Below are positions 8,993 to 62,360 of a stretch of DNA of 64,000 nucleotides, piece after piece. This DNA comes from Candidatus Latescibacterota bacterium (GTDB lineage: Bacteria > Latescibacterota > UBA2968 > UBA8231): the NCBI GenBank assembly GCA_965206595.1, contig OZ242214.1, positions 5,440,001 to 5,504,000 on the forward strand, written 5' to 3'. Under the pieces are notes generated by a model, which had not been told where the DNA came from, did not search any database, and saw only the letters and a program-made list of their open reading frames with translations. The first letter of the stretch is position 1. Each line of letters opens with the position of its first letter. A program made the position numbers and the translations under genes.

Positions 8993-9027
8993 GGTCTCGT
9001 TCCTTGCAGTTCTCCCGGTAGCCCCCT

Positions 9028-9753: not shown

Positions 9754-9779
9754 CTTTCCTCTCCTTGTTCAGGGTGTGC

Positions 9780-11132
9780 TCACCGCAACACCAGCACGTC
9801 CATGTTTTGGCCGAAGCTCTCGTAGCTCGAGGTGATCACCTGCTCCCCCGGTTCGAGTCCCTCCAGCACCTCGTAGACTCGGGGGTTCTGGCGCCCGAGG
9901 GAGATGGGGTGCCTCGTCGCCTGATCGCCGGAGGCGTCGAGCACGTAGGCCCAGTGACCCCCGGTCGACTGGTAGAATCCGCCGCGCGCCACCTGCACTG
10001 CCTCCTCGAGGTTGCCCAGCTCCAGGCGGATGTGCAGGCTCTGGCCGCGCCGGATGCCCTCGGGCGCTTCCCCCTCGAAGACCAGATCCACCTCGAAACG
10101 GCCCTCCCTGACCTCCGGGTATACCTTGCGGATCACCAGGCCGTACGGCTCGCCGCCGCTGTCGAAGCTGCCCCGCTGACCCCGGCCGACGCGGCCGATG
10201 TAATGCTCGTCTATGGCGGCGCGCACCTTGAAGCCGCCGGTCATGTCGATCTGTCCCAGGCGCACCCCGGCCCCCTTGCTCTCTCCAACCTCCGCCTTGA
10301 GCGTGGTCAACTGCCCGGCCACCGGGGCTCGCACCGTCAGGTTGTCCAGCCGCCGCCGGACGATTTCGAGGTTGCGCCCGGTGCGCTCCACCGCCGAGAC
10401 CAGCTGCGCCACCTTGCTCGCCGCCAGCAACGAGTCCTGGGTCAGGGTCTCCCGGGTCAGGGCCATGCGGCGGGCGCTGTACTCGTACTCGTCGCGCAGC
10501 CGCTCGTACTCCTGGCGCGACATGATGGCGGCCAGGTCCTCCGCGGGCAGGTCTTGGTAGCGCTCGAAGTTGCGCTTGTCCACCGCGAGCCGGTACTCGA
10601 TCTCCATCAGCCCCTTCCGCGAGGCCAGCAGGTTCTGCTCCATGGTCAGCCGGCCGTTGAGCAGCGCCTCCCTGCTGCGCTCCAGCCCGGCCTCCTGCTG
10701 CAGGATGGTCAGCTCGAGGTCGGGATTGGCGAGGCGCAGCAGCGGGTCGCCCTCCGCCACCAGGGCCCCTTCTTCGGCGAACACCTGCACCACCTGGCCG
10801 CTCTCCAGGGCATCGAGGTACACGGTGTTCAGCGGCAGCACGGTACCGCGCACCGGGATGTACTCCAAGAACGGGGCGAGCTCGACCGCCGACAGGGTCA
10901 GCCTTTCGCGCTGGACGTTCAGCCTGCGCACCCCGAAATCGGCGAGCAGGGCGTATGCACACAGCCCTGCCAGCAGCAGAACAGCAGCGCCCAGGGCGAT
11001 GCGCCGCGGCGTGAAGCGCCGCTTCTCGATTCTGCGGTCCATGCCGAGGCCGCCGCCGGGACGGGTGATGCCGGGCTCGGATTCGAAGGGCTCGGCGCGC
11101 TCTTTGGGGAAGATCCGGATATTCGCAGGCAT
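9780..11132 (-). CDS. Efflux periplasmic adaptor subunit (MacA/HlyD-like); alternative start at 11042
   Basis: N-terminal TM after MDRRIEKRRF, lipoyl-like ESGQVVQVFAEEGALVAEGDPLLRL, long coiled coil, VRAPVAGQL, VLEGLEPGEQVI. Confidence 0.9.
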   Translation of the reverse strand: MPANIRIFPKERAEPFESEPGITRPGGGLGMDRRIEKRRFTPRRIALGAAVLLLAGLCAYALLADFGVRRLNVQRERLTLSAVELAPFLEYIPVRGTVLPLNTVYLDALESGQVVQVFAEEGALVAEGDPLLRLANPDLELTILQQEAGLERSREALLNGRLTMEQNLLASRKGLMEIEYRLAVDKRNFERYQDLPAEDLAAIMSRQEYERLRDEYEYSARRMALTRETLTQDSLLAASKVAQLVSAVERTGRNLEIVRRRLDNLTVRAPVAGQLTTLKAEVGESKGAGVRLGQIDMTGGFKVRAAIDEHYIGRVGRGQRGSFDSGGEPYGLVIRKVYPEVREGRFEVDLVFEGEAPEGIRRGQSLHIRLELGNLEEAVQVARGGFYQSTGGHWAYVLDASGDQATRHPISLGRQNPRVYEVLEGLEPGEQVITSSYESFGQNMDVLVLR

Positions 11133-33410: not shown

Positions 33411-33683
33411 GTTTTTCTTCTCGCTAAAAAGGGTCTTGAAAGGGTCTTGGAAGCCCGCTGTTCCCGGGCGTCCGGCAGGGCTTGGCTTCGGGAGTCGGCC
33501 GTGGCAGGGGGCCATGCCCGGCCAGAAGGCGCGGTTGGTGGTGGTCGATGAATGAACAGCATCTGGACGACGGCATATCTTAACGTATCCGGAAGGCCGG
33601 ACTCAAGAACGAAGCGGGTGCCCGGAAGGACTGCGATGCGCCCTCGACTGTTTTCAGGCTCTCGAAAGCGGAAAGGAAACACG

Positions 33684-34478
33684 GTGCTGAAAGCCGGGAT
33701 ATTTCTCGATATGGACAACCTGAGCCGCTGCGGCGGCTACGCCCTCCAGTTTCGCCAGGTCAAGGCCCTGGTGGAGGGTCAGGGGGGGCTGGTTCTGCGG
33801 GCGAACGCCTACATGGCGATCAACAGCGAGCGCGAAAGCGCGGACCTGGAGTACCAGCAGAAAAGAGAGGATTACCGCACCTGGATGCGGCGGGAAGGGT
33901 ATCACCTGGTGCTCAAGGAGATGAAGCAGTACCGCGATCCGGAGGGCCAGGTCATCGTCAAAGCGAACGCCGATCTCGAGCTGGCCATAGACGCCCTGCT
34001 GCAATCGGCCAACCTCGACTACGTGCTTCTGGGCAGCGGCGACGGCGACTTCGTGCGCCTGGTGCGGGCCTTGCAAAACAGGGGCAAACGGGTCGATCTG
34101 CTGTCGTTCATGAACACCAGCAAGGAGCTGCGCCAGGAAGTGGACAACCATTTCTCGGGCTACCTGGTGCCCGGCATCCTGCCCGATGAACGCGGCGCGG
34201 CCGGGCGCATCAGGGGGATCCTGCACGCGGTCAACGAGGAGAAGGGGTACGGCTTCCTTACGGTTCGGATCGGCATGGAGCTCGACAGCGTGCGCGAGGA
34301 CATCTTCCTGCACATCTCCGACCTGCAGACCGTGAAGGGCGGCGCCGTGACCAACGCCCTGTTCGCCCAGTTCAAGACGCGGGGTACCATCATCGAGTTC
34401 GAGCTGACCGAAGAGGACGGCAGGGCCAAGGCGGTCAAGGCGGTGGAGTTTCTGCCCGAGCTGTGGGGGACGAACTGA
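33684..34478 (+). CDS. NYN/LabA (PIN-fold) protein with C-terminal cold-shock OB domain
   Basis: GIFLDMDN, KANADLELAID, LGSGDGDFVRLV..LQNRGKRV; C-terminal KGYGFL...DIFLHIS (RNP1/RNP2-like). Confidence 0.88.
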   Translation: MLKAGIFLDMDNLSRCGGYALQFRQVKALVEGQGGLVLRANAYMAINSERESADLEYQQKREDYRTWMRREGYHLVLKEMKQYRDPEGQVIVKANADLELAIDALLQSANLDYVLLGSGDGDFVRLVRALQNRGKRVDLLSFMNTSKELRQEVDNHFSGYLVPGILPDERGAAGRIRGILHAVNEEKGYGFLTVRIGMELDSVREDIFLHISDLQTVKGGAVTNALFAQFKTRGTIIEFELTEEDGRAKAVKAVEFLPELWGTN

Positions 34479-34499
34479 GATACGGGACTGGGAAGACCC

Positions 34500-34900
34500 A
34501 TATGCTGCTACGGGAACGAAAGGGCGGTCACTGGGAAGGATTTTTAGCGCCATCGTACGACCACGCTTCATCATTGGGGCGTGAGCTTCAGGATACGCGG
34601 CGCCATAAGCTGATGAAAGAAAACCGGATCGGGGACTATGCCGAAAAAGGACGCGGCGCGATTTACTGGTCGGAGGAAGATCCGCACGGTCCCAGTCCCT
34701 TGGAGTTGGTACGACGGGCTGCTCGCAGCTATCCGAATCTATTCCTTCCCGCCCTGGGAAAAGTTGCAAAATTGGGGAAGGGATCCCTGGACGACCTGGT
34801 AAACCGCGTGCCCAGTGGCTGGATGTCTGCATCAGCCAAGGATTTTGCGGTTTCTTTGATGCACTACAAATTTGAGCAGTTACAGGAGTTAATTCCATGA
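34500..34900 (+). pseudogene. HipA-like kinase, C-terminal fragment
   Basis: FLAPSYDHASSLGREL motif plus C-terminal helices; the ATP-binding lobe and DRH motif are missing. Confidence 0.65.
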
Positions 34901-35469
34901 GCGAGAGGACCTTGTTTTTGGCTTGGCAGGACAACCAGTTGAGCAGGGCATGGTTTCCGGTGGGGCGGCTGGATGCCGACGTTGAACGTCCTCTGTATCG
35001 CTTCCGCTACATCGGTGGCGCGGAGAAAGCGCAACAGCAGGTAGGGTTTCCTCTGCTGATCGAGTTTCCCGAATTGAAAGAGGACTATCAATCTTCGGAG
35101 CTGTTTCCCCTGTTCCGGAATCGGGTTATGAATCGGGCGAGGCCGGACTTGGACAAATATTTGCGCAGTCTTGATCTGACCTCGGAAGCTGACCCTATTG
35201 AGATCTTGTCGGCAAACGGAGGCCGTCGGGTGACGGACGCTTACGAAGTCTTCCCGAAACTCGACAAGCAGGCAGATGGAAGCTTCACTTGCCGGTTTTT
35301 TCTGCACGGCTGGCGACATACCAACAAAGCCGCCAAGGATCGAATCAGCTCCCTGAAGCCAGGAGAAGAACTGTACGTCACCCTGGAGCTGACCAATCCG
35401 GCGACCGTCATGGCCTGGAACCTGCACGAACCAATGAGCAATGCTGATTTCCAGCCTTTGGTCCCTTGA
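34897..35469 (+). pseudogene. HipS-like/HIRAN-domain protein, probably truncated near 35410
   Basis: LFLAWQD..RAWFPVGRL, ELFPLFRNRVM...RPD, GGRRVTD.YEVFP, FFLHGWRH, LKPGEEL...ELTNP, after which the sequence is unrelated. Confidence 0.65.
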
Positions 35470-49323: not shown

Positions 49324-52008
<2,685 letters not shown>

Positions 52009-52079
52009 CCCCCGGCATCGGCCTTCGCCGTAACCGGCCCCGAGGGGTCACCCGCTTCCATGTCGGGAAGGAGCAACCC

Positions 52080-53147
52080 ATGCAGCGGGAAAGACTCGAA
52101 GAAGCAGAGTCGCTCTATCGTGGCCTGTTCGAGGAATCGCACGACGCCCTTCTCATCACCGAGCGGGACGGGACCATCGTCGCCGCCAACGCCGCGGCCG
52201 CTGCCCTGTTCGGCTATGAGGGCGCCGAGCTGACCGGCTTCGACATCCGCAGGCTCTACCTGAATCCCGACGACCGCGCGCGCTTCCAGGAAGCGATCGA
52301 GGGCGCCGGGTTCGTGCGCGACTTCGAGGTCGCCTTCCGCGCCCGCGACGGCCGCCGCCTCGACTGCCTGTTGACGACTGCGGTCCGGCGAGGCGCGGAC
52401 GGCACCGTAACCGGCTACCAGGGCATCATCCACGACGTCACCGAACGCCGGCGCATGGAGAAGCGGCTGCGCGATTACCAACGCAGGCTGCGCTCGCTCA
52501 CGCTCGAGCTCTCCATGAACGCGGAACGGGAGCGGGCGCGCATCGCCGCAGGCCTCCACGACGGCGTCCTGCAGCAGGTGGTGGCGGCGCAATTCAAGCT
52601 CAAGGCACTGCAGCGCAGCGGGGACCGCGAGGAAGGCCTGATCGCCGACCTGCGGGACCTGCTCGATCAGATGGCTCACGACCTCCGCTCCATGACCTTC
52701 GACCTCAGTCCCCCGGTGCTCCGCAGGCTCGGCCTGGTACCCGGCCTGCAGTGGCTCGGCGAACAGATCGAGGACCTGCACGGGCTGGCGGTGGACCTGG
52801 CGGCCGAAGGGGACTGCGCGGTTCCCGACCCCGACATGCGTGCGCTTGCGTTCCGGTGCATCCGCGAGCTGCTCCGCAATGTGGCGAGGCACGCCGATAC
52901 GGACCGGGCGCGCGTCTTCCTGCGTGGCGACGAGACGCATCTGCAGGTGGCGGTAGAGGATGAGGGGGAGGGCTTCGACAGCGGACACGATTTCGCCGCA
53001 GGCAGCCACTTCGGCCTGTTCAGCATAAGGGAACGGGTGACCCTTGTCGGCGGCTGTTTCAAAATCGAGGCGGCGCCGGGGAAAGGGACGCGCTGTCTGC
53101 TGGCGATCCCGTTCTCCCCGTCCAGACAGGAGGACGGTGCTCAATGA
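52080..53147 (+). CDS. Cytoplasmic PAS-domain histidine kinase (HisKA_3 type)
   Basis: RBS AGGAG; PAS (YRGLFEES...GIIHDVTERR), ERARIAAGLHD, ELLRNVARHA, DEGEGF, FGLFSIRER; no TM segment. Confidence 0.92.
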   Translation: MQRERLEEAESLYRGLFEESHDALLITERDGTIVAANAAAAALFGYEGAELTGFDIRRLYLNPDDRARFQEAIEGAGFVRDFEVAFRARDGRRLDCLLTTAVRRGADGTVTGYQGIIHDVTERRRMEKRLRDYQRRLRSLTLELSMNAERERARIAAGLHDGVLQQVVAAQFKLKALQRSGDREEGLIADLRDLLDQMAHDLRSMTFDLSPPVLRRLGLVPGLQWLGEQIEDLHGLAVDLAAEGDCAVPDPDMRALAFRCIRELLRNVARHADTDRARVFLRGDETHLQVAVEDEGEGFDSGHDFAAGSHFGLFSIRERVTLVGGCFKIEAAPGKGTRCLLAIPFSPSRQEDGAQ

Positions 53148-53791
53148 CTGCGAAAGTTCTGTTGGTCGACGATCACAAGATCGTGCGCGAAGGGCTGCGT
53201 GCGCTGCTTGAAGGAGAAAGCGACCTCGAGGTGGTGGGGGAGGCCGGGGACGGCCTGGAGGCCATCGGCTTGGTCTCCGACCTCCGGCCCGACATCGTGG
53301 TCATGGACATCAGCATGCCCGGTCTGGACGGCGTCGAGGCGACGCGCCGGATACGGGCCGGGGAGCCGGACGTGAAGGTGGTGGCCCTGTCGGTCCACGG
53401 GGAGAAGCAGTTCGTGACCGGCATGTTGCGGGCGGGGGCCTCGGGTTACCTGCTGAAAACGGAGGCCGCCTACAACCTGGTGCAGGCCATCCGGACGGTA
53501 CGGGCAGGCGGCCGGTACGTAAGCCCGGAATTGATCGACCCCGGCGTTGAGGATTTCGTGCAGCAGCCCATCGACGAGGGGGAGCAGCCCGTACTGACTC
53601 CGCGCGAGCGAGAAGTGCTGCGACTCATCGCCGAAGGGAAGAAGAACCGTCAAATAGCCGGTGAACTGTATGTGAGCGAGAAAACCGTCGACAACCATCG
53701 CCAGCACATCATGCAGAAACTCAACCTGCACAACACGGCCGACCTCACCCGGTACGCCATCAGGGAGGGGATTTCGTTTCTCGATTCGTGA
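53144..53791 (+). CDS. NarL/LuxR-family response regulator
   Basis: VLLVDDH, VMDISMP, GYLLK, LTPREREVL...IAGELYVSEKTVDNHR. Confidence 0.95.
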   Translation: MTAKVLLVDDHKIVREGLRALLEGESDLEVVGEAGDGLEAIGLVSDLRPDIVVMDISMPGLDGVEATRRIRAGEPDVKVVALSVHGEKQFVTGMLRAGASGYLLKTEAAYNLVQAIRTVRAGGRYVSPELIDPGVEDFVQQPIDEGEQPVLTPREREVLRLIAEGKKNRQIAGELYVSEKTVDNHRQHIMQKLNLHNTADLTRYAIREGISFLDS

Positions 53792-53847
53792 GTTCCCGCC
53801 CAGCGAAGTTTTTTCCGGAAGCAAAAAAGACTCTGGAACCCGGAAAA

Positions 53848-53865
53848 ATGAGGAGTTTACCCCAT
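53848..53865. promoter_or_regulatory. Putative NarL/LuxR-type operator
   Basis: Imperfect palindrome ATGAGG-AGTTTA-CCCCAT ~50 nt upstream of the thioredoxin-like gene. Confidence 0.4.
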
Positions 53866-53917
53866 AGGACACCCCTGGATCCCTGGCTACCTTGGGTGGC
53901 GAAAGGATACTTGGGAT

Positions 53918-54490
53918 TTGAAATCCTTCGCACTCACACCAGTACTCAGAATGGTCGCGGCCATTGCGGTAGGAACGACCGCAGGCTACGGGATGTTGCA
54001 CCTGCATAAAGCTCCCCCGGTCAAGAAACCACCGCTCCAGGAAATAATGTTCCAAGAACAGGACGACGGGCTCAGTCACTTGGTGGGAAAGGATCTCGCC
54101 CCTTACTGGGGGGAGACACGCACCGCTGACCCAAGCTTTCAGGGGATACGTGACGGCGTTCTGCTGTTCGTCGACCCGGCGTGTGATGCATGCGATCCGG
54201 TGTACCCGGTGGCTCTTCAGGTTCAGGAGGAGTTGCCGGTCTTTCTCGCCGTCGATCATCCGCCGTCGGCGGATCTGGACAATTACCTCGCTTATTTTGG
54301 CGCCGGCGACCTGCCGGTACTGCACGAGACCCTGGAACTGCGTCGGGGGCTTCCTGTCGACTACTGGCCGACTGCCGTTCTGGTCCGAGACGGGCGAGTG
54401 GCAGCAGCTGGCAACGGCAGAGTCACGGTCAGCCATATACTCACCGAGGCGCTGCAGGATTCGGGCCGATCCCATGAACCCCTTAAATAA
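53918..54490 (+). CDS. Membrane-anchored thioredoxin-fold protein (CxxC)
   Basis: TTG start after AAGGA; N-terminal hydrophobic anchor; LLFVDPACDACDPVY and cis-Pro motif DYWPTAVLVRDG. Confidence 0.75.
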   Translation: MKSFALTPVLRMVAAIAVGTTAGYGMLHLHKAPPVKKPPLQEIMFQEQDDGLSHLVGKDLAPYWGETRTADPSFQGIRDGVLLFVDPACDACDPVYPVALQVQEELPVFLAVDHPPSADLDNYLAYFGAGDLPVLHETLELRRGLPVDYWPTAVLVRDGRVAAAGNGRVTVSHILTEALQDSGRSHEPLK

Positions 54491-54502
54491 GGAAAAGTCG
54501 TC

Positions 54503-54826
54503 ATGATCCGCATCCTAATGAGCATTCGTCCATCCGAGTTGGTTGTCGCCCTACTCGTCGCAGTTGGGGTGGTCGTCTTCGGCTCCGTGGAAGAGGCGCG
54601 GGCGGATTTCAGTTCGACTTGCGCCGAACTGGACTATTACGAATCAAAGTGGATATGCGATTGGGAATATCCGAGGCACTGCAAGAAAAAAAGCATCGGA
54701 ATCTGTACGTATAAAGTGTGGAGGCAAATAAAGGTTGAAAAGCATCCAATAGGTGGTTGCTATGTAGCGGATACACGCTGTTCGTGGACTTCATGCTTTG
54801 AAGTATTTTGTGGTAAACGTTGGTAA
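54503..54826 (+). CDS. Secreted cysteine-rich miniprotein (8 Cys in ~73-aa mature part)
   Basis: RBS AAGGA 12 nt after the upstream stop; Sec signal ending ARA; mature DFSSTC...WIC...RHC...GIC...GGC...TRC...TSC...VFCGKRW; AT-rich. Confidence 0.75.
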   Translation: MIRILMSIRPSELVVALLVAVGVVVFGSVEEARADFSSTCAELDYYESKWICDWEYPRHCKKKSIGICTYKVWRQIKVEKHPIGGCYVADTRCSWTSCFEVFCGKRW

Positions 54827-54900
54827 CCCTACTTAGTAACCGTTCAATTCTCCTGCAAATGTAAAAGAAGGAATTACCAAGCAGGTTATAGGGTTCGTCG

Positions 54901-55310
54901 ATGTCTTTAGGGATTGGTTGTGAGGTGCTCCGATTGGTTAATCGTTTTCGACCTACGGGCACCTGCAGTCAGGTCTGCTGGGCTCACCAGCGGCGCACCC
55001 TTGAGAACTTTGTGGTGCGAGACGGAGAGGCCGAGCGCGTTTGTCACCATCTGTCGGACTTTAGCGAGCAGGCTGTTTTCTTGGTGGCATTAAGTCCCCA
55101 TAGCGGAACCTCCGTCCCGGGCTGACTTCCAGAACTATATCGATATTTTTCGAGCTATCGAAAAGGAGTGGAGCCAACCAACAACGAGACCCGAACGAGC
55201 GCTTCCCCATGGAGTGTTGTGGCGCGCCCAGCTTCGGTACCCACAGTGCCCAAGAAAGCCGCTTCTTAGCGGCCTCTGCTCACGGTGAGTATACTCTGCG
55301 CCAGCAACAA
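54901..55310 (+). mobile_element. Degenerate IS66-family transposase relic
   Basis: Fragments across frames: QVCWAH.RR (54970), GVEPTNN (55165), ERAL.HGVLWR, SFGTHS, LLTV..TLRQQ. Confidence 0.65.
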
Positions 55311-55359
55311 CGGCTCTATTGTGAGTCTGGAGAATGCCGTGCAGAGAGCTAAAATAGCA

Positions 55360-57624
55360 GTGAACCGAATCGTCCCCCTTTTTTTGATTTTTGCACTTTC
55401 ACGGGTGCTACAGGCTGTTGAATTTCCAGGTAAGGTTTTTCTGGGGCCTCAGCTGAAGCTTGTTTTAAACAGTTCCCCTCAGACTTTCAGAGTACCGGGG
55501 GCGAAAGCCGTCGAACAGTTGCCAATCTACGTTGTGTTGCAGGCCGATCCTGTCCGGCTCCAAGCCGCCGTCGTTGCATGCGGGGGTAGCCTCGGCACGG
55601 TTATCGACGACATCGCCACCGCCTTCCTTCCCCCGGGGGACTTGGTTCGGCTCGCGCGGGAGGCGGGAGTTTCCCGTATAGAGTTGGTTGGGCAAGCCAC
55701 ACCCCACCTAGAGCGCTTCAAAACCCATGCTTATCTCAGCGACCCTCGAAAACAACAGTCCGGCGGCAGGTCCTTCCTTGGAGAGGAGGTCCTTCCCGAA
55801 CTGCCGGACGCAACGGCCTTGCACTATGAGATCCCACCCCTCGACCATGCCTACACTGGAAAGGGGGTGGTGATCGGTTTCTTCGACAGCGGGATCAACT
55901 TCCATCATCTTGATTTTCGTGACCCCGGTGATCCAAGCAAAAGTCGGATTCTGTCCATCTGGGACCCGCAGGATTCCCGGGGACCTTCTCCACCCGGACG
56001 CAGGGGTACCGAGTGGACAAGGGAGCAGATCGAAGCAACCCTGAATGGAGATTCAAACTCTCCTTCGGGAGATCAAAACGGTCACGGAACCGCGGTAGCC
56101 GGGACTGCCACTGGTAATGGGACAGGAACAGGAAGTTATGCCGGAGTGGCGCCCGAGGCGGATATCGTTATGGTGATCAGTCGCGGATTATCATACTTAG
56201 AAGCTGCAGACTACATCTATCAGAAAGCGGCGGAAATCGGCAAACCCGCGGTGGTCAATTTCAGTAAATTGGGAAGTGTCATTCCTGGCTCCCTCGAGGA
56301 GAAAGGATTGGAGAAGCTTGTTCGGGCCGCCCCGGGTCGTGCCTTTGTCGCAAGTGCCGGGAATGGAGGAAACTACATTGGACACTGGGGTGGATTTTCC
56401 CTGCAACAGGAACCCCTATGGACATACTACAAAGTTTTCGCCGACTCATCTGTTTTGGATGAGCCTGAGAATGGTTTCATTTGGCTCGAGGGCATCGTGC
56501 TTGGAACTTCGAATGGAAGCGGGTTTCTTGCCCTAGCCCTGGAAGAGGAACCGGAAGGACAAGACATTCAAGGAACCCAGATTACAAGGAGCGCTTGGAT
56601 CAACCTGTCGGAGCTTGCCGCAGATTCCTTTGTCAATGCCAGCAGCGATACTATGAAATCTGAGAGCGGAGATATTTTGGGTATAGTTAACTTGGCGGCT
56701 TCTCAATTGGAAAGCCGGAGCATCAGTTTTTCAATCCATGCATTTCAGTTTCCCAAAATTCGGAACAATGCTCCTGTTGTGTGGCGATTTATGGCTAAAG
56801 GGCAGGGCATCATCCACGTTTGGACCCATTTTGGGGAGCCCGTCACCAGGAGTGATCTAAGCTCCGAAACCGGATATCGCCCGTTGGACAATCGTTACAT
56901 GGTCCCTTCCCCGGCTGCCTCCGGGGAGGTAATCGCGGCAGGAGCCTACGCCAATATTCAGCCCCCAGTTCTCCCCCGCGTGGATCAGGGTGATTTGCTG
57001 CCACTCTCGAGCAGGGGGCCGACCATTCACGAACGGATCAAACCCGATCTCGTAGCCCCCGGAGTCTTATATACCAGTTCCCATGTCGGGATCGATAAGC
57101 GCGTCGGTGTTTACGGCACCAGCTTTTCTGCCCCGGTGGTCGCCGGTGCCGTTGCCCTCTACTTCGAGCGCTTTCCGCAGGCCACCAACCGGGACGTCTG
57201 GCGCGCCCTCACCGAATCAGCCGCTTCCGACGAGTTCACTGGGGTGACCCCCAACTTCGACTGGGGGTACGGCAAGCTCGATGTCGCCGCGCTTCTGCAG
57301 GAACCGCCCACCGTGGTTGCCGCCGAGACGGGGGAGGTTCGCCCCGCTGGCTTTGCCCTTGAGCAGAACTACCCCAACCCGTTCAACGGGCGCACCTCGA
57401 TCAGCTACCAGCTTCCAGGCCCTGGTGCGGTCGAGTTGATCCTCTATGGCCTGCTGGGCCAGCCGGTGCGGCGCCTGGTGTCCGAGTACCAGGGCGCCGG
57501 GTTTCACCGTGTCGCGTGGGACGGAACCGATGACGGGGGGCATCCGGTCGCCAGCGGGGTATATCTGTACCGGCTGAAGGCGGGTGACCAACTGCTTTCG
57601 CGCCGTCTCGTTCTCGTTCGCTGA
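55360..57624 (+). CDS. S8 (Csp-like) subtilase 1 with prodomain and C-terminal FlgD-Ig/T9SS-A-like domain
   Basis: Signal VNRIVPLFLIFALSRVLQA, prodomain, GKGVVIGFFDSG, GHGTAVAG, SAGN, GTSFSAP, LEQNYPNPFN...VASGVYLYRL. Confidence 0.88.
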   Translation: MNRIVPLFLIFALSRVLQAVEFPGKVFLGPQLKLVLNSSPQTFRVPGAKAVEQLPIYVVLQADPVRLQAAVVACGGSLGTVIDDIATAFLPPGDLVRLAREAGVSRIELVGQATPHLERFKTHAYLSDPRKQQSGGRSFLGEEVLPELPDATALHYEIPPLDHAYTGKGVVIGFFDSGINFHHLDFRDPGDPSKSRILSIWDPQDSRGPSPPGRRGTEWTREQIEATLNGDSNSPSGDQNGHGTAVAGTATGNGTGTGSYAGVAPEADIVMVISRGLSYLEAADYIYQKAAEIGKPAVVNFSKLGSVIPGSLEEKGLEKLVRAAPGRAFVASAGNGGNYIGHWGGFSLQQEPLWTYYKVFADSSVLDEPENGFIWLEGIVLGTSNGSGFLALALEEEPEGQDIQGTQITRSAWINLSELAADSFVNASSDTMKSESGDILGIVNLAASQLESRSISFSIHAFQFPKIRNNAPVVWRFMAKGQGIIHVWTHFGEPVTRSDLSSETGYRPLDNRYMVPSPAASGEVIAAGAYANIQPPVLPRVDQGDLLPLSSRGPTIHERIKPDLVAPGVLYTSSHVGIDKRVGVYGTSFSAPVVAGAVALYFERFPQATNRDVWRALTESAASDEFTGVTPNFDWGYGKLDVAALLQEPPTVVAAETGEVRPAGFALEQNYPNPFNGRTSISYQLPGPGAVELILYGLLGQPVRRLVSEYQGAGFHRVAWDGTDDGGHPVASGVYLYRLKAGDQLLSRRLVLVR

Positions 57625-57659
57625 ACCTGCCGACATTGGATTTTCGCGGGGGAGTCAAG

Positions 57660-59630
57660 ATGAAGCTCACCATTCTGAGTTTCCTTTCCCTGCTCACGCA
57701 GGTGCCCCTCACAGCGGCCGAAGTCCCCGCAACTTCTGGAACCTCACCTCCCCTGAACAGGTTGTCTTTCCGTTCCCTGGGTGGTGCGGTAGAAGGAGAA
57801 CCCTCCGGCACTCTCCTCGAATCCCTGTCCGGGGTGACGGCCACCGGCAAGGGGGTGATCGTCGGCATCATTGACTCCGGGATCGACTGGCGCCACCCCG
57901 ATTTTCGCGATCCGGCAGACAGCCTGCACAGCCGCATCCTCAGCATCTGGGACACGAAACTTTACCTGTCGATGGAAGAAGGTCCGCCTCCGCCGGGGTT
58001 CGATTACGGCCGGGAGTGGACGCGGAAGGAAATCGAGGCCGCGCTGCGCGGCGAGAGACGCGGTCCGCCGCGCGATCCGGTTCTCGATCACGGGACCTAT
58101 GTCGCCGGCATCGCCGCCGGCAACGGCAACGCCGATCCCCGATACCGGGGCATGGCACCCGATGCCGAAATCGTCGTGGTCACTGTTGGTGCGGAATTGA
58201 CTCTGCCGGACGCTCTCAGTTACATCTTTGGAGTTGCGGAGCGCGAAGGCCTGCCGTCAGTGGTGAATTATAGCGGGGGATTGGCTTGGGGCTACCGGGA
58301 AGGAAACCTGGAAGAGTTCTTGCGCGAGCAACCGGGCAGGGCCCTCGTAGCCTCAGCGGGAAATGTGGGCAACCAGCGGCATGTCCGCTTTGAATTGGAG
58401 GAGGAGACCTCCTTTTACACGATTTTTCAGACCCTTGAGTGGGTCCCTCCGTTCTGGAGGTCGGTGGAAGTACGCGCAAGTGATTTCCGCTGGCTTGTCG
58501 CCTACCACCAGGGTCCGGGCGAGGCTTGGGTAGGAACAGGACCTTCGGCTGAAGAGATGGTCTGGCGTTCCTCCAATCAGCTTGCCGATCTGGGGGGAGA
58601 ACCGGAAAGGCATCCATTCCTCGTTGAGGAACCCGAATACGAGATTGACAGTCCCGTAAATGCCGACGGAGATACCTTGGGGCGCGTCGCTTGGTCGGGC
58701 CATCGCGTCGGGGAAAACAAGTGGCTGGAGATCATGGTCGAGAACTGGGTGCCGGAAGTGTCGGATTGGCGGCTTGTGGCGAAGGGGAGCGGAGTGCTCC
58801 ATGTCTGGATGCTGGCAGATGCTCCGCAGCAGGTTACGAATTCCCGGTCGAACCATGACCCGTATTTCCACCCCCACGACAACCTCTACACCCTCTCCTA
58901 TCCCTCTACGTCGCCGGAAGTGATTTCGGTCGGCGCCTTCGCCAACCGGGTGCCGGATGCTTACGAGAACCTGCAGGCAGGCGACCTGATGCCGTTCTCT
59001 TCAAGGGGACCTTCCCTGGACGGCCTGCTGAAGCCTGACCTGGTTGCTCCCAGTGTTCTGACCGCGGCGCGCAGCGGCGACTCGACGAGATACCGCGACG
59101 GCTTCGGTCCGCGAGGGGGGGGGACCAGCGCCGCGTCCCCGGTCGTTGCAGGGGCAGTGGCCCTGTATTTCGAGCGGTTTCCCCGGGCCACCAACCGCGA
59201 GGTCTGGCGGGCTCTCACCGAATCGGCGGTTTCCGACGAGTTTACCGGGGAGACCCCCAATTTCGACTGGGGGTACGGCAAGCTCGACGTCGCCGCCTTT
59301 CTGCAGGAACCGCCCACGGTGGTCGCTGCCGAGGCCAGGGAGGTTCGCCCCGCCGGCCTTTCGCTCGAGCAGAACTACCCCAACCCGTTCAACGGGCGCA
59401 CCTCGATTAGCTACGGATTACCGAAGCCCGGAGCGGTGGAGCTGACCCTCTACGATCTGCTGGGCCAACCGGTGCGACGGCTGGTGTCGGAGTACCAGGG
59501 CGCCGGGTCTTACCGTATCGCCTGGGACGGAGCGGATGATGAGGGGAACCAAGTCGCCAGCGGCGTGTATCTGTACCGGCTGAAAGCGGGGCACCAGCAG
59601 CGGGCCCGGCGGCTCGTTCTCGCTCGTTAA
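57660..59630 (+). CDS. S8 (Csp-like) subtilase 2, no evident prodomain, with C-terminal sorting-like domain
   Basis: MKLTILSFLSLL signal; GIIDSG, DHGTYVAG, SAGN, GTSAASP; NYPNPFN tail. Confidence 0.9.
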   Translation: MKLTILSFLSLLTQVPLTAAEVPATSGTSPPLNRLSFRSLGGAVEGEPSGTLLESLSGVTATGKGVIVGIIDSGIDWRHPDFRDPADSLHSRILSIWDTKLYLSMEEGPPPPGFDYGREWTRKEIEAALRGERRGPPRDPVLDHGTYVAGIAAGNGNADPRYRGMAPDAEIVVVTVGAELTLPDALSYIFGVAEREGLPSVVNYSGGLAWGYREGNLEEFLREQPGRALVASAGNVGNQRHVRFELEEETSFYTIFQTLEWVPPFWRSVEVRASDFRWLVAYHQGPGEAWVGTGPSAEEMVWRSSNQLADLGGEPERHPFLVEEPEYEIDSPVNADGDTLGRVAWSGHRVGENKWLEIMVENWVPEVSDWRLVAKGSGVLHVWMLADAPQQVTNSRSNHDPYFHPHDNLYTLSYPSTSPEVISVGAFANRVPDAYENLQAGDLMPFSSRGPSLDGLLKPDLVAPSVLTAARSGDSTRYRDGFGPRGGGTSAASPVVAGAVALYFERFPRATNREVWRALTESAVSDEFTGETPNFDWGYGKLDVAAFLQEPPTVVAAEAREVRPAGLSLEQNYPNPFNGRTSISYGLPKPGAVELTLYDLLGQPVRRLVSEYQGAGSYRIAWDGADDEGNQVASGVYLYRLKAGHQQRARRLVLAR

Positions 59631-59678
59631 TCTTCGCGAATCTGTTGCGGCTTCTGGGGGTTGCATGGGAAGGTCAGA

Positions 59679-61565
59679 ATGAAGCTCATCACCTTGAGCT
59701 TTCTTTCCCTGTCCCTGCACGGTTACCTCGCCGCTTTTGTAATCCCCGCATCCACCATTTCCGGTTCCTCCCTGAAAGACTGGTCCCTGCAATCTCTATC
59801 AGGCTCCGATGAGGGTGAGCTCTCCGGCAGCCTGCTAGAATCCCTTTCCGGGGTGACGGCCACCGGCAAGGGGGTGATCGTCGGCATCATCGACACTGGA
59901 ATCGACTGGCGTCACCCCGACTTCCGCGACCCCGCCGACAGCCTGCGCAGCCGTATTCTCAGCATCTGGGACAGGGAGAGTTCCCTGGAGGAGGAGAGCC
60001 CGCCCCCGGAGGGATTTGACTACGGCCGGGTGTGGACGCGTGATGAAATCGAAGCGGCGCTACGCGACGAGGCAGTCGGACCGCCGCGAGATCCCCACCG
60101 TCATGGGACCTTTGTCTCCGGCATCGCCGTGGGGAACGGCAACGCCGACCCGCGCTACCGGGGGATGGCGCCCGAGGCGGAGATCGTCGTCGTCACTCTC
60201 CCTGTATTGGAGGGCGTCCGCTACATCTTCGATATGGCAGGGAGAAAGGGCCGCCCGGCGGTGGTGAACTACAGCGGCGGAACTTTCCTTTCGCATAGTG
60301 AGCGGAAAGAGTTGGAGGGTCTTTTGCGGGAAAAACCGGGCCGGGCGCTGGTCGCCTCTGCAGGAAACGGGGGACAGGGTCTTCGCCACGCCCGTTTCGA
60401 CCTGACCGAGGACGTTTCCTTTACGATTTACCGGACGAGCCCAAGGGAGGAGGAGCCAGGGAGTGAGTTGATGGTCCAAGCGTATCATCAGGGTCCGGGG
60501 GAAGCCTGGATCGGGGCAGGGTTGTCCGAGGATGTAATGGTCTGGCGCTCCCTTGAGGAGATAGCGGAAAGCGAATTCGAAGATGTAACTGACAGCCTGG
60601 GGACCGCGAAGGTCGTCTGGGAGGGCAGCTTTGACGAGAAGGATTTCACGCTGTTAATCCACGTCGAGGACTCCAATCCAGAGTTGTCGGAATGGCGGGT
60701 GGCGGCGAAAGGGAGGGGGGTATTCCACACTTGGCTCTGGTCCGGCGGACCGGGAGACGAACCTGTGCAGGAACCGCTGGACGACCCGCAATACCGCCCC
60801 CGCGACAACTACTACACCCTCTTGTCCCCTTCCACGTCTCCGGAGGTCATCGCGGTCGGAGCCATCGCCAACCGGGATCTGGAGTTTCTTGCCGATACCG
60901 AAAAAGACCTGTTCGAGGACCTGAAGACCGGCGATCTGCTGCCGTTCTCATCTCGAGGCCCTGCCTTGGATGGCCTGCTCAAGCCCGACCTTGTGGCTCC
61001 GGGGGTGCTGACCTCGGCCTGGAGCGGCGATTCCACGAACTACCGGACCGCGGCGGGCACAAGCGTTTCGGCACCGGTCGTGGCCGGCGCCGTGGCCCTC
61101 TACTTCGAGCGCTTTCCTCAGGCCACCAACCGCGAGGTCTGGCGCGCCCTGACGGAATCTGCCGCTTCCGACGAGTTTACCGGGGAGACCCCCAACCTCG
61201 ACTGGGGGTACGGCAAGCTCGACGTCGCCGCCTTTCTGCAGGAGTCGCCCACCCTGGTTGCCGCCGAGCCCGGGGAAGCTCTTCCCTCAGGCTTCTCCCT
61301 GGCGCAGAACTACCCGAACCCGTTCAACGGGCGCACGACGATCACCTACGAACTGCCGAAGCCTGAGGGGGTGGAGCTGACTCTCTACGATCTGCTGGGC
61401 CAACCGGTGCGGCGCCTGGTGTCCGAATACCAGGGCGCCGGGTCTTACCGTATCGCCTGGGACGGGGCCGATGACGAGGGGAACCAGGTCGCCAGCGGAG
61501 TGTATCTATACCGGCTGAAAGCAGGGAGCCGGCAGCGGGCGCGGAGGCTTGTGTTGGTCCGCTGA
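59679..61565 (+). CDS. S8 (Csp-like) subtilase 3, no evident prodomain, with C-terminal sorting-like domain
   Basis: MKLITLSFLSL signal; GIIDTG, RHGTFVSG, SAGN, GTSVSAP; NYPNPFN tail. Confidence 0.9.
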   Translation: MKLITLSFLSLSLHGYLAAFVIPASTISGSSLKDWSLQSLSGSDEGELSGSLLESLSGVTATGKGVIVGIIDTGIDWRHPDFRDPADSLRSRILSIWDRESSLEEESPPPEGFDYGRVWTRDEIEAALRDEAVGPPRDPHRHGTFVSGIAVGNGNADPRYRGMAPEAEIVVVTLPVLEGVRYIFDMAGRKGRPAVVNYSGGTFLSHSERKELEGLLREKPGRALVASAGNGGQGLRHARFDLTEDVSFTIYRTSPREEEPGSELMVQAYHQGPGEAWIGAGLSEDVMVWRSLEEIAESEFEDVTDSLGTAKVVWEGSFDEKDFTLLIHVEDSNPELSEWRVAAKGRGVFHTWLWSGGPGDEPVQEPLDDPQYRPRDNYYTLLSPSTSPEVIAVGAIANRDLEFLADTEKDLFEDLKTGDLLPFSSRGPALDGLLKPDLVAPGVLTSAWSGDSTNYRTAAGTSVSAPVVAGAVALYFERFPQATNREVWRALTESAASDEFTGETPNLDWGYGKLDVAAFLQESPTLVAAEPGEALPSGFSLAQNYPNPFNGRTTITYELPKPEGVELTLYDLLGQPVRRLVSEYQGAGSYRIAWDGADDEGNQVASGVYLYRLKAGSRQRARRLVLVR

Positions 61566-61607
61566 CCCTGAATCACTTTCCCGATCGAAGGAGCCTGGAC
61601 ATCCGGG

Positions 61608-62147
61608 CTACTTCACCAGCCGGGCGATCTCCCTGAACCCGGGGTTGCCGGCCTCGCGCAGCAGCTCGAACAGGGCCGTTTCCACCGACGTTACCCCGGC
61701 GCCGGCGGCCCTCATCTTTTCCATGCCCACCCGCTTGTTGGCCAGGGTTCGGGACGACACCGCATCCTCGACGACCTCGACCTCGAAGCCGCGCTCGCGC
61801 AGGTCGCGGGCGGTCTGGTAGACGCAGATGTGGGTTTCTATTCCGGCGAGCAGGACCTGCTTCCTGCCGCTTTCCTCCAGCCGGCGCAGGAACTCCGGCT
61901 GCCCGCAGGCGCTGAAGCAGGTCTTGGCCAGCGGCTCCCGGCCCTCGAGCAGCTCGGCGACCTCGGGAATGGTCGGCCCCAGGCCCACGGGGTACTGCTC
62001 CAGCCAGAGGACAGGAAGATCAAGGGCCGTTGCCCCCTGCACGAGGATGCGCAGGTTGCGGTAGAGCTTCTCCTTCTCGTGCATGAGGCGGGCGAGCTTG
62101 CCCTGGACGTCGATGATCGCCAGCGCCGTATCGGAAGCTTCAAGCAT
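61608..62147 (-). CDS. Isochorismatase-family (YcaC-like) cysteine hydrolase
   Basis: AIIDVQ, EQYP.GLGPT, KTCFS, AGIETHICVYQT, DAVSSR. Confidence 0.92.
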   Translation of the reverse strand: MLEASDTALAIIDVQGKLARLMHEKEKLYRNLRILVQGATALDLPVLWLEQYPVGLGPTIPEVAELLEGREPLAKTCFSACGQPEFLRRLEESGRKQVLLAGIETHICVYQTARDLRERGFEVEVVEDAVSSRTLANKRVGMEKMRAAGAGVTSVETALFELLREAGNPGFREIARLVK

Positions 62148-62360
62148 CGCGAGCTCCTTCTACTGCCGGTTCTTTGCTGCATGCGGTCCCATTCATAAGA
62201 GTTGATCCATTCGGGGCACGGCGGGACTGATGCGCGGTCTTCCCGCCTGTTCGGCTCTTCCTCGGGCTCTCTATCCGATTCGCCTTACCCGTTCGCCTTC
62301 TGATGCCAGCGCCGATTCTGCCCGCCTGCCTCAAGGCGTCTCTGCCTTGAGAAGGCATCC

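Follow-up and report, generated by a model that had tools for sequence, protein, structure and literature searches.

An orphan thioredoxin-fold oxidoreductase and a hypervariable eight-cysteine miniprotein encoded beside three predicted T9SS subtilases in a Latescibacterota genome

The best-supported outcome of this analysis is a two-gene module that pairs an orphan oxidoreductase of predicted TlpA/ResA-type thioredoxin fold with a miniprotein bearing eight cysteines, encoded upstream of three predicted T9SS cargo-type proteases in Candidatus Latescibacterota bacterium (contig OZ242214.1, GCA_965206595.1). The window is the 64,000-nt stretch at 5,440,001-5,504,000 of the forward strand, and the locus occupies positions 52080-61565 of it. 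The ORF list and Pfam/NCBIfam profiles place seven predicted genes there, all on the plus strand, between acnA upstream (49324-52008) and a convergent isochorismatase-family hydrolase downstream (61608-62147, minus strand), both assigned with Pfam, which bears out the layout given in a prior sequence-only reading. That reading also described the genes as inserted. A syntenic Latescibacterota MAG, L001, the sole relative fetched for locus comparison, holds the same block at the same site, so the whole unit was not recently inserted; what stands is that the stretch from the oxidoreductase gene to the third subtilase is atypical in composition. The anomaly is confined to that stretch, and the kinase and regulator genes before it have near-host GC3 (0.85 and 0.82). 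L001 carries the orthologous locus (acnA 97% identical), and its synteny is therefore not independent evidence. Judged from sequence, the locus appears to be an island of atypical composition that evolves fast and occupies a fixed place on the chromosome, acnA/isochorismatase, in one Latescibacterota lineage.

The oxidoreductase and its miniprotein

The oxidoreductase gene (53918-54490, plus strand) encodes a protein with a hydrophobic N-terminus and two cysteines in all, C89 and C92, arranged as C89-D-A-C92. Both are invariant among 10 aligned sequences, and a cis-Pro candidate, P151, is nearly so. The AF2 model has a pLDDT of 68.8, with residues 50-183 mostly at 66-90, and Foldseek matched it in the PDB to ResA, DsbE, TlpA, CcmG, and SdbA (E from 4e-5, prob 1.0). 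The predicted fold is shared with the TlpA/ResA/CcmG/DsbE group (PDB 1st9, 3gl3, 1jfu, 1kng, 5um7), and as in that group the CxxC of the model lies between the first strand and the next helix and the N-terminus is hydrophobic; in our reading of the model, the cis-Pro would also precede the central strand, as in TlpA/ResA. Unlike those proteins, this one has no sequence-profile membership: Pfam gave no match, NCBIfam only MauD (E=0.025, 14.1 bits against a cutoff of 188.6), and a PDB profile search one match at E=0.017. Just 9 proteins of its family were found among 5.8 billion searched, DP(A/S)C(D/S/G)ACD is an uncommon active-site context for the group, and the gene lies in no cytochrome-maturation context. 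The protein had been described as anchored; the CxxC is present, but the candidate anchor is only moderately hydrophobic (KD15 1.99), with a topology assumed from the fold family.

The miniprotein gene (54503-54826, plus strand, 107 aa) starts 12 nt further on, a gap that measures 11-12 nt in L001. Its 34-aa leader (54503-54604) is of Sec type, with an n-region, a strongly hydrophobic 15-residue h-region (KD15 3.09), and an ending of ARA followed by D; the remaining 73 residues (54605-54826) hold eight cysteines, so the earlier description of a Sec-exported, Cys-rich miniprotein is upheld. Leader and core have very different histories. The leader is 79-91% identical in five relatives, four of them full-length, and against L001 its dN of 0.068 set beside a dS of 0.57 indicates constraint at the protein level. 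The cores of the same relatives are just 29-53% identical, and the core has the lowest GC of the locus (GC3 0.43) and is 36% identical to that of L001, compared with 97% for acnA. Three core length subtypes are shuffled among leaders, yet an even cysteine number is maintained despite this hypervariability (eight in 8 of 12 members, six in 3, the last being truncated). Most cores are acidic, with K+R/D+E of, for example, 8/15, 5/10, and 9/13. Searches of Pfam, NCBIfam, and PADLOC returned no match, PDB sequences none at E<=10, and Foldseek of the miniprotein model against the PDB none at E<=1e-3 (best E 0.92), with no potempin or other inhibitor fold matched. The miniprotein thus carries no assignment from these databases and would represent a new family.

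The proposal that the miniprotein has the thioredoxin-like gene as its dedicated partner gains support from the predicted fold, the short gap, shared contigs, and the distribution of cysteines at the locus. Three of the five miniprotein matches share a contig with a thioredoxin-like match, contigs being equated on equal nucleotide size, and one of these contigs is 1,534 nt long, with room for little else. The miniprotein is also the sole Cys-rich exported product of the locus: the second and third subtilases have no cysteines, and the first has two, both N-terminal. After Sec export, the miniprotein probably has its disulfides formed or isomerised by the adjoining oxidoreductase, the catalysis and its direction being read from fold and position. 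Dedicated thiol-disulfide oxidoreductases of this kind reportedly include BdbA/B, which folds sublancin, and MauD, which serves MauA.

Further parallels come from pediocin, which has a dedicated oxidoreductase, PedC (PMC4919988), and from EntV, which needs both DsbA and GelE cleavage (PMC6606811). As in both systems, a thioredoxin-fold CxxC protein is encoded here beside a small exported Cys-containing product (PMC4919988, PMC6606811), and the dependence of EntV on a secreted protease has a counterpart in the subtilases adjoining the pair (PMC6606811). The PedC, EntV, BdbA/B, and MauD systems serve Gram-positive bacteriocins or an amine dehydrogenase and come with transporters, immunity, or mau genes, whereas this pair belongs to a diderm host and has none of those genes. 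Its oxidoreductase, in contrast to those of the dedicated systems, fails every sequence model, MauD included, and its product differs from pediocin/EntV-type products in having eight cysteines and a cassette-like core.

The subtilase array and an exchanged cassette

The three proteases, here S8_1 (55285-57624), S8_2 (57636-59630), and S8_3 (59661-61565), all on the plus strand, are Csp-like subtilases with a T9SS type-A C-terminal domain (CTD). Pfam Peptidase_S8 matches all three (E 1e-37 to 4e-39; S8_1 4e-38), the Asp, His, Asn, and Ser motifs were found in each, and D80/H152/N243/S498 is invariant across 31 aligned relatives. In their tails TIGR04183, the NCBIfam model of the T9SS type-A sorting domain, scores 33.9, 39.0, and 43.4 bits, respectively, above its cutoff of 23 bits. 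These matches confirm the earlier description of catalytically intact S8 proteases with sorting-like tails. The best sequence matches are Csp germination subtilases (PDB 9t7m, 9pr8, 6mw4, 4i0w; NCBIfam CspBA), with E of 1e-35 to 3e-39, the last being S8_1 against PDB Csp proteases, and the three subtilases and clostridial Csp proteases have a central insertion between His and Ser in common. The CspBA scores of 128-141 bits are far below the equivalog cutoff of 1250, however, and unlike the clostridial germination proteases these subtilases carry signal peptides and T9SS CTDs in a non-sporulating FCB-group host.

The ~190-aa N-terminal extension of S8_1 consists of a signal and a region, residues 45-190, that resembles CspB prodomain clusters in the ESM Atlas (score 0.96; 21 of 30 matches) and has no match in Pfam. 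S8_2 and S8_3 have just ~40 residues between signal peptide and catalytic Asp and, unlike Csp proteases, no prodomain, so the suggestion that these two lack prodomains holds up as a lead. None of 24 close family clusters exceeds 51% identity to S8_1, but against its paralogs identity rises from 30-50% upstream to 85-88% in alignment columns 661-780; among the paralogous subtilases, identity over the final ~120 aligned residues is 73-88%. S8_1 is a chimera, with a unique N-terminal and catalytic part joined to a homogenised end of ~170 residues.

Comparison with L001 points to how this chimera and the miniprotein core may be connected. Collinear blastn similarity runs up to 54608, at the leader/core junction, and picks up again at 57114, within the 3′ end of the first subtilase, delimiting an exchanged low-GC block (54605-57111) that covers the miniprotein core, the spacer, and the first 609 codons of S8_1. 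Identity bins fall from 85% to 45% at 54600, dS runs from 0.10 in acnA through saturation in the core to 0.20, and GC3 is 0.43/0.56/0.56 inside the block compared with 0.74 in the leader, 0.79 in the S8_1 3′ end, and 0.89-0.93 in the flanks. S8_2 and S8_3 are 80.8% and 81.6% identical to the L001 proteases S8_a and S8_b, whereas the first downstream protease and the miniprotein core both differ between genomes (49% for S8_1 against S8_a, and 36%). On a contig of 2,376,817 nt, again equated on equal size, the S8_3 ortholog P0037 is 93.5% identical and the miniprotein merely 45%. With one block anchored in the leader and in the subtilase 3′ end, the donor would have had the same gene order. Breakpoints and composition are observed directly, and the miniprotein core and first subtilase may have been exchanged as a functional unit, presumably by recombination.

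Within this block, the 458-nt spacer (54827-55284) contains a 74-aa ORF (54901-55125) that had been called an IS66 relic. The identification comes down to 25 residues matched in NCBIfam at E=0.023, with 13.8 bits where the cutoff is 180; Pfam gave no match, nor, at E<=0.01, did tblastn of 72,556 plasmid records, and the relic is not sustained. L001 instead has two secreted ORFs, xA and xB, at this position, with no homology to the spacer in sequence comparison. The corollary that an IS relic could make the linkage accidental is itself weakly founded, and cassette replacement better describes the break in miniprotein/protease linkage. A PIN gene lies within the L001 array.

Co-occurrence elsewhere, judged from contigs of equal nucleotide size with one contig (the longest) listed per cluster, is partial. 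All four large contigs with a thioredoxin-like match also carry the subtilase family, but of the 10 contigs >100 kb with close subtilase relatives only five have the thioredoxin-like gene, so prodomain-less subtilases do not generally depend on the pair. As all known members of the miniprotein/thioredoxin-like family come from a single narrow lineage, a conserved neighbourhood is weak evidence. The putative link between the proteases and the pair therefore draws on one non-independent syntenic genome, equal-size contig matches, and the cassette boundaries.

Possible functions of the miniprotein

A potempin-like role is proposed tentatively, by analogy. Potempins are inhibitors of 98-132 residues whose genes directly precede those of T9SS KLIKK peptidases, and one of them, PotC, is described as a standard-mechanism subtilase inhibitor (PMC9890683); KLIKK proteases have a near-identical CTD in common (PMC4404884), and C10 proteases of Bacteroides are transcribed together with small inhibitors that are periplasmic or lipoproteins (PMC3462683). 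The Tannerella forsythia KLIKK/potempin system and this locus are both from the FCB superphylum, and each comprises a set of T9SS-cargo peptidases that includes a subtilase and has near-identical CTDs, with a small ORF of ~100-130 residues upstream of and co-directional with a peptidase (PMC9890683, PMC4404884). Potempins are thought to protect the producer's envelope (PMC9890683), and the miniprotein may do likewise. It would cross the inner membrane via Sec (the signal peptide is seen, its cleavage presumed), have four disulfides formed or isomerised in the periplasm by the neighbouring oxidoreductase, and be retained there because it has no lipobox and no T9SS CTD. It would then resist proteolysis and, by binding tightly, inhibit the next downstream subtilase, as a potempin-like guard acting while the folded enzyme transits the periplasm toward T9SS. 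Core and first subtilase would be swapped together as a cassette by recombination anchored in the conserved leader and in subtilase 3′ ends kept alike by gene conversion. If true, a thioredoxin-paired miniprotein would keep three secreted subtilases in check. Inhibition of the adjacent subtilase is possible at low confidence, and the explanation as a whole is similarly doubtful. The single block holding both core and S8_1 catalytic part, together with the potempin precedent, lends it indirect support. Several observations count against it: the 458-nt spacer, occupied by two extra genes in L001; one miniprotein for three proteases; the prodomain-like region of the nearest protease; a miniprotein that evolves far faster than S8_2 and S8_3 (~81% identical between genomes); the missing inhibitor-fold match; and the miniprotein P0002, on a 90,656-nt contig, for which neither a thioredoxin-like nor a subtilase match of that contig size was found. 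Potempins, moreover, are outer-membrane lipoproteins of OB or 8-stranded beta-barrel fold, one per peptidase and immediately upstream (PMC9890683), whereas here a single non-lipoprotein eight-Cys miniprotein stands apart from the first subtilase and has a dedicated thioredoxin-fold partner, which the potempin system does not have.

The hypervariable core suits a different role, in which the miniprotein is a Sec-dependent, disulfide-stabilised bacteriocin- or toxin-like peptide, the thioredoxin-like protein its dedicated folding catalyst, and the subtilases enzymes that may trim or activate it, as with EntV, DsbA, and GelE. A conserved leader and hypervariable core on a fixed Cys framework are reported for animal effector peptides such as mussel MgCRP-I and conotoxins, and diversifying selection from target cells would fit the saturated synonymous divergence, the low GC3, and the shuffled length subtypes. 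Dedicated oxidoreductases for bacteriocins (PMC4919988, PMC6606811) and SdbA among the fold matches point the same way. Such an effector is possible at low confidence, slightly below that of the inhibitor. Against it, the miniprotein has no T9SS CTD or lipobox as an outer-membrane export signal, Pfam and NCBIfam reveal no transporter or recognisable immunity gene within the locus, most cores are acidic rather than cationic, and PADLOC has no match. The conserved leader beside S8 proteases also recalls a RiPP-like precursor, with the leader as recognition element for a maturation enzyme and the proteases as LanP/PatA-like leader peptidases. This is highly improbable: with its hydrophobic stretch and AxA site, the leader is a canonical Sec signal rather than the cytoplasmic leader of a RiPP; Pfam/NCBIfam gave no radical-SAM, LanM/LanB, cyclodehydratase, or comparable enzyme in the locus; and the signal peptides and T9SS CTDs of the proteases place their activity outside the cytoplasm.

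Alternatively, the locus may be a recombination hotspot in which two or three independent units are no more than neighbours. One would be the pair, with a different periplasmic role such as decoying or inhibiting foreign enzymes or serving the envelope or redox state; another would be a set of T9SS exoproteases, arranged in tandem and used for nutrition; and the last would be an unrelated two-component system. This has a limited chance of being correct. Close subtilase relatives extend beyond the pair (25 clusters on 19 contig sizes, compared with 9 on 8 for the thioredoxin-like gene), half of the large subtilase contigs are unmatched, and KSB1, Bacteroidota, and Kapabacteria commonly have S8-CTD relatives, at 27-36% identity. 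The two-component genes have near-host composition and divergence, the genes between miniprotein and proteases differ between the two genomes, and a PIN gene is typical hotspot clutter. Set against these are the subtilases on every large thioredoxin-like contig, the donor gene order implied by the exchanged block, and the co-directional genes with gaps of 11-30 nt within the array.

The two-component genes and the following intergenic region

The earlier identification of a PAS kinase and a NarL regulator is confirmed by Pfam domains. The sensor histidine kinase (52080-53147, plus strand; PAS 3.5e-18, HisKA_3 7.5e-8, HATPase_c 7.9e-10) is predicted to be cytoplasmic, no hydrophobic segment having been found (maximum KD15 1.53), and is 88.5% identical to its L001 ortholog. 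The NarL/LuxR-type response regulator (53144-53791, plus strand; Response_reg 4e-30, GerE 3e-23) overlaps it by 4 nt and is 83.3% identical to its ortholog. By adjacency, the two may control transcription of the locus. The analysis does not bear out a single regulated system made up of all seven genes, with L001 synteny non-independent, the thioredoxin-like gene present on half of the large subtilase contigs, and regulation read from gene order.

The AT-rich palindrome reported after the regulator, in the 5′ part of the intergenic region (53792-53917), does not survive as a structure: its fold z is -0.12, with 81 of 200 shuffles folding equally well or better, no terminator was called there, and it is not kept in L001. 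Identity to L001 over the region is 75% and then 94% in successive 100-nt bins, and the conserved 3′ ~100 nt include AAGGA ~10 nt before the TTG start of the oxidoreductase gene.

Gene organization and regulation

The locus lies in a high-GC genome (window GC ~69%) and comprises seven co-directional genes, all of which had been described in a sequence-only reading as lying between acnA and a convergent hydrolase and all of which are borne out. The left flank is acnA (49324-52008) and the right flank is a convergent isochorismatase-family gene (61608-62147, minus strand). On the plus strand, a kinase with PAS-HisKA_3-HATPase_c domains in Pfam and without a hydrophobic segment (52080-53147) overlaps by 4 nt a regulator with Response_reg and GerE domains in Pfam (53144-53791), and this combination of HisKA_3 and HATPase_c in the kinase with Response_reg and GerE in the regulator is the make-up of a NarL-class two-component system. 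Neither protein reached an NCBIfam equivalog cutoff, with MctS/MctR as the best matches, and the pair may control the rest of the locus, for which the argument is adjacency. A 190-aa CxxC oxidoreductase (53918-54490) begins 126 nt after the regulator, a 107-aa exported miniprotein with eight cysteines (54503-54826) begins 12 nt after the oxidoreductase, and three subtilases follow, S8_1 (55285-57624) after 458 nt, S8_2 (57636-59630) after 11 nt, and S8_3 (59661-61565) after 30 nt, all on the plus strand.

Two intergenic elements reported earlier were not upheld. The palindrome placed after the regulator folds like shuffled sequence (z -0.12) and lacks conservation in L001, a related locus in another Candidatus Latescibacterota MAG, while the proposed IS66 relic amounts to 25 residues matching NCBIfam NF033517 with a score of only 13.8 bits (cutoff 180; E=0.023), with no Pfam match and no plasmid tblastn match. 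Scans for regulatory signals gave three promoter-like sites with 2.0 expected and five terminator-like sites with 10.0 expected, none in the intergenic gaps of interest except a promoter-like site within the annotated 5′ end of S8_1. The only Rfam match at E≤0.1 in 51900-62300 was a eukaryotic IRES at 21.6 bits, below the threshold of 40 and attributed to chance. Long ORFs of 444 aa (53141-54475, minus strand) and 1,222 aa (49479-53147, plus strand) are high-GC artefacts overlapping or antisense to real genes, and the latter frame merely continues into the kinase gene.

An orphan thioredoxin-fold protein and its neighbor

The oxidoreductase was modeled with AlphaFold2 from a 10-sequence alignment (pLDDT 68.8, with residues 50-183 mostly at 66-90), and a Foldseek search of the PDB with this model gave 36 matches at E≤1e-3, starting from E=4e-5. 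The top matches were ResA, DsbE, TlpA, CcmG, DipZ-C, and SdbA, with probability 1.0 and TM-scores to the target of 0.55-0.67. Among the 10 sequences, C89 and C92 are invariant and P151 is nearly so, and the CxxC motif falls between a strand (80-84) and a helix (95-103) of the model; the protein thus displays the conserved CxxC and cis-Pro loop of a TlpA/ResA-type thioredoxin fold. Comparison with curated models, including Redoxin, AhpC-TSA, and Thioredoxin_8, returned no Pfam family at E≤10 other than a spurious 11-bit match, and a PDB profile search returned one match at E=0.017. PADLOC likewise gave the oxidoreductase no match above background. Because sequence models do not match and the Foldseek matches are of the TlpA/ResA type, the oxidoreductase is predicted to form an orphan branch within the TlpA/ResA-type group of extracytoplasmic thioredoxin folds. 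Relatives of the oxidoreductase number only nine in a database of 5.8 billion clusters, each at least 49% identical. The N-terminus is only moderately hydrophobic (KD15 maximum 1.99, residues 4-18) and residues 1-45 were modeled at low confidence, so the periplasmic topology is predicted from the fold family. Identity as MauD was rejected (TIGR02661, 14.1 bits against an equivalog cutoff of 188.6, E=0.025), and no mau genes occur among the 48 window ORFs scanned.

The gap separating the oxidoreductase and miniprotein genes is nearly constant, at 12 nt in the window and 11 nt in L001. Three of five miniprotein matches lie on contigs equal in length to those of an oxidoreductase match (7,053,161, 2,376,817, and 1,534 nt), equal length being taken to indicate one contig; the smallest has room for little beyond the pair. 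The miniprotein is also the sole Cys-rich exported product of the locus, since S8_2 and S8_3 have no cysteines and S8_1 has two, both in its N-terminal extension. The two proteins are therefore likely to be related as enzyme and substrate. Within the literature library searched, no paper dealt with such a module, and all matches concerned other systems. The parts have familiar counterparts, namely a thioredoxin that serves one exported, disulfide-rich product, a short ORF preceding T9SS protease genes, and two-component regulation of the NarL type.

A conserved leader on a variable cysteine-rich core

A word-indexed search with the miniprotein found four relatives besides itself, and searching 1.84 billion representatives with a profile returned nine matches at E≤1e-3. 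Twelve sequences were aligned, leaving out P0004, a copy like that of L001 but truncated to 78 aa, and P0022, a 1,289-aa protein with no aligned stretch (E=4.8e-4). Eight of the twelve have eight cysteines, three have six (one apparently frameshifted), and one is truncated, such that every intact full-length member has an even number. The core, consisting of the 73 residues after the leader, retains the motifs C-x2-L-D-x-Y-E-T-S-x-W-F-C, (Q/E)-I-K-(I/V)-x-K-x-P, and S-R-C-P-x-W, with at least three subtypes distinguished by loop length. In the miniprotein relative P0021, the Cys framework is lost midway, suggesting a pseudogene or assembly error.

The 34-residue leader has an n-region, a 15-residue h-region, and an ARA|D site. 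In five relatives, four full-length and one truncated, it is 79-91% identical to that of the window, whereas their cores are only 29-53% identical to the window's. Between the window and L001 the leader has dN of 0.068 and dS of 0.57, and it is therefore the protein sequence that is conserved, an uncommon situation in signal peptides. No resemblance to the miniprotein was found in Pfam, NCBIfam, PADLOC, or the ESM Atlas, the last giving no usable match, and a PDB sequence profile search with its alignment gave no match at E≤10. A medium-confidence model (pLDDT 69.4) likewise had no Foldseek PDB match at E≤1e-3, the best being cystatin and laterosporulin at E=0.92. On sequence comparison, the miniprotein and oxidoreductase represent two new protein families without a Pfam or NCBIfam model.

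Subtilases with T9SS tails

All three S8 proteases are catalytically intact, as first read, with Asp, His, Asn, and Ser motifs in each and PF00082 scores of 130-135 bits, and an alignment of 31 sequences shows no variation at D80, H152, N243, or S498. Left out of this alignment were the close family members P0026, P0029, P0035, P0036, P0039, P0041-P0043, P0045, P0046, and the apparently frameshifted P0040, which lies on a 12,606-nt contig and is Pro/Arg/Ser-rich past about residue 470 before the CTD resumes, suggesting a pseudogene or assembly error. The tails, initially described as sorting-like, are T9SS type-A domains (TIGR04183, cutoff 23 bits; scores of 33.9, 39.0, and 43.4 bits); in Pfam, Por_Secre_tail scores fell below the cutoff (22.3 and 24.0 against 27) and FlgD_ig scores were above it. 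No T9SS machinery is encoded among the 38 other window ORFs scanned.

The closest relatives of known structure for all three are the clostridial Csp germination proteases (E from 1e-35 to 3e-39). Scores against NCBIfam CspBA/CspC are far under the cutoff (128-141 bits against 1250), and these subtilases are therefore Csp-like rather than Csp; Pfam did not detect the CspB prodomain PF18425 in any of them. S8_1 has ~190 extra N-terminal residues that fall beside CspB-prodomain clusters in the ESM Atlas (score 0.96; 21 of 30 matches), and this possible CspB-prodomain-like extension is treated only as a lead because Pfam is silent there. In S8_2 and S8_3, ~40 residues separate the signal peptide from the catalytic Asp. 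A defense-system reading of the locus was rejected because the PADLOC match for the proteases reflects generic subtilase/IetS similarity only.

The start of S8_1 is uncertain: a sigma-70-like promoter match lies within 55328-55360, and with translation from the in-frame GTG at 55360 the signal peptide (M-NRIVPLFLIFALSRVLQA|VEF) would be cleaner than with the GTG at 55285. The last ~500 nt of the three genes (57112-57624, 59117-59630, and 61052-61565) are 83% identical in DNA, and the catalytic parts are far more diverged. The pattern looks like gene conversion that homogenizes the T9SS domain and the rest of the C-terminal region, and the KLIKK proteases are reported to show the same.

A mosaic locus

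L001, the one related locus recovered, has the same flanks and gene order, with two extra paralogous secreted ORFs between the miniprotein and the proteases, a PIN gene within the array, and a different set of three proteases. Divergence from L001 is low at the edges, where acnA has 97.4% amino acid identity (dS 0.10) and the isochorismatase 91.6% (dS 0.20). From acnA it increases through the kinase (88.5%, dS 0.16), the regulator (83.3%, dS 0.29), and the oxidoreductase (73.3%, dS 0.50) to the miniprotein (48.6%), in which dS is 0.57 for the leader and saturated for the core. Beyond this, S8_1 has no ortholog in L001 (49% identity at best), S8_2 corresponds to the L001 subtilase S8_a (80.8%, dS 0.54), and S8_3 to S8_b (81.6%, dS 0.33). 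Across 49324-62147, dS thus climbs smoothly to the miniprotein core and comes back down at the isochorismatase, and dN/dS is 0.15-0.36 throughout; the central alleles therefore predate the genomes or were imported. Such a gradient is what hitch-hiking should produce where a site experiences balancing or diversifying selection, or where import recurs.

The block collinear with L001 in blastn stops at 54608, at the leader/core junction, and homology returns at 57114. GC3 drops from 0.89-0.93 in the flanking genes to 0.74 in the leader, 0.43 in the miniprotein core, and 0.56 in both the spacer and the first 609 codons of S8_1, and reaches 0.79 in its last 170 codons. These last 170 codons are 85-88% identical to the paralogs, compared with 30-50% upstream, and S8_1 is thus a chimera. 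The interval 54605-57111 appears to have been exchanged as a single block, with the leader and the subtilase 3′ ends, apparently kept alike by gene conversion, as its anchors, and such an exchange implies a donor with the same miniprotein-then-subtilase order. A second mosaic appears on the 2,376,817-nt contig, on which equal-size matches include an S8_3 ortholog at 93.5% identity, an oxidoreductase at 75%, and a miniprotein at 45%. Leader-anchored cassette exchange is unusual, and the locus offers a clean example of exchange anchored in a signal-peptide coding region.

The two secreted ORFs of L001 (L001:11089-11790 and L001:11838-12653; 233 and about 271 aa) sit where the window has its 458-nt spacer. 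They have similar signal peptides and a shared end (...LEYHRI.PATAVTRTTWG.LKAT.AP), but match no Pfam family, Imm40 coming closest (E=0.094), and have neither a PADLOC match nor a counterpart in the window. The PIN-domain gene (L001:17040-17462; Pfam PIN, 3.5e-7) lies between the second and third subtilase genes and is absent from the window.

Inhibitor, effector, or neighbors

The working model for the miniprotein, held tentatively, is that of a cognate inhibitor of the subtilase next downstream. Proteins bound for the T9SS fold in the periplasm prior to export. The miniprotein would be exported by Sec, folded oxidatively by the neighboring oxidoreductase, and retained in the periplasm, as proposed because it has neither a CTD nor a lipobox, where it would inhibit the next-downstream subtilase while that enzyme crosses toward the T9SS. 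Inhibition of this kind would account for core and first protease moving as a unit, for the cores differing between genomes whose first proteases also differ, for the need for a disulfide-stabilized product, and for the lack of an export signal in the miniprotein. The closest precedent is the potempin/KLIKK-peptidase system, in which genes for inhibitors of 98-132 residues directly precede those of T9SS peptidases and PotC inhibits a subtilase by the standard mechanism (PMC9890683), and the T9SS (KLIKK) peptidases have near-identical CTDs (PMC4404884). The co-transcribed small periplasmic inhibitors of Bacteroides C10 proteases provide a second precedent (PMC3462683). The miniprotein gene is upstream of and co-directional with the proteases, yet a 458-nt spacer intervenes in the window and two genes do so in L001. 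Potempins have a lipoprotein signal, whereas the miniprotein has an ARA|D site with its first Cys six residues later, and their OB or eight-stranded beta-barrel fold has no parallel in the medium-confidence model, with 0 Foldseek PDB matches at E≤1e-3; for these two reasons the miniprotein is not a potempin. When S8_2 (residues 30-578, 31-row alignment) and the miniprotein core (35-107) were modeled as a complex, without controls, ipSAE was 0.01 and 0.00, where the mark is 0.32, values that speak neither for nor against binding.

Mere neighborhood of the pair and the proteases is about as probable as inhibition. The proposal of one regulated module is favored by the co-directional, tightly spaced genes, by the presence of the subtilase family on each of the four large contigs that hold the oxidoreductase, and by the gene order implied for the donor of the exchanged block. 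Against it, 5 of 10 contigs >100 kb that hold close subtilase relatives (≥53% identity, 25 clusters) have no oxidoreductase match, counting only the longest contig per cluster. L001 is an orthologous locus, and its synteny is therefore not independent evidence, and S8-CTD proteins of lower similarity occur commonly as cargo in the FCB group. A bacteriocin-like effector stands as the other rival to inhibition: a conserved leader on a hypervariable core fits it, and EntV, which requires both DsbA and GelE (PMC6606811), is an analogue, but an export route, an immunity gene, and cationic character are missing. A RiPP precursor is very improbable, as no leader-recognizing modifying enzyme occurs in the locus and the leader is a hydrophobic Sec-type signal. 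It is improbable, though conceivable, that these are bacterial conotoxin-style effector genes in which the near-invariant leader, beyond its Sec function, serves both as a handle for capture of the nascent chain by a dedicated membrane oxidoreductase that introduces the disulfides and as a swap anchor for a hypervariable core with its cognate T9SS subtilase, forming an independently evolved potempin-like inhibitor/protease system that diversifies by recombination.

If the miniprotein is a cognate inhibitor, the potempin paradigm, in which every T9SS protease has a small inhibitor as its guard, would no longer be confined to a single oral pathogen but would include environmental FCB bacteria that are uncultured, and it would gain a dedicated oxidative-folding step. 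If it is an effector, it would represent a new disulfide-rich scaffold family with a diversification mechanism built in. On either reading, the pair would provide a compact, stable scaffold with naturally variable loops.

Other features of the window

A 161-aa integrase-core (rve) fragment at 2705-3190, probably an IS remnant, lies inside a cluster (446-11132) of three MacB/FtsX-type permeases, two ABC ATPases, and an HlyD-like adaptor. At 34463-35469, two ORFs (145 and 190 aa) adjoin an NYN-domain gene (33552-34478); their GC3 is low, at 0.58-0.66, they match no Pfam family, and they may form a second small atypical patch.
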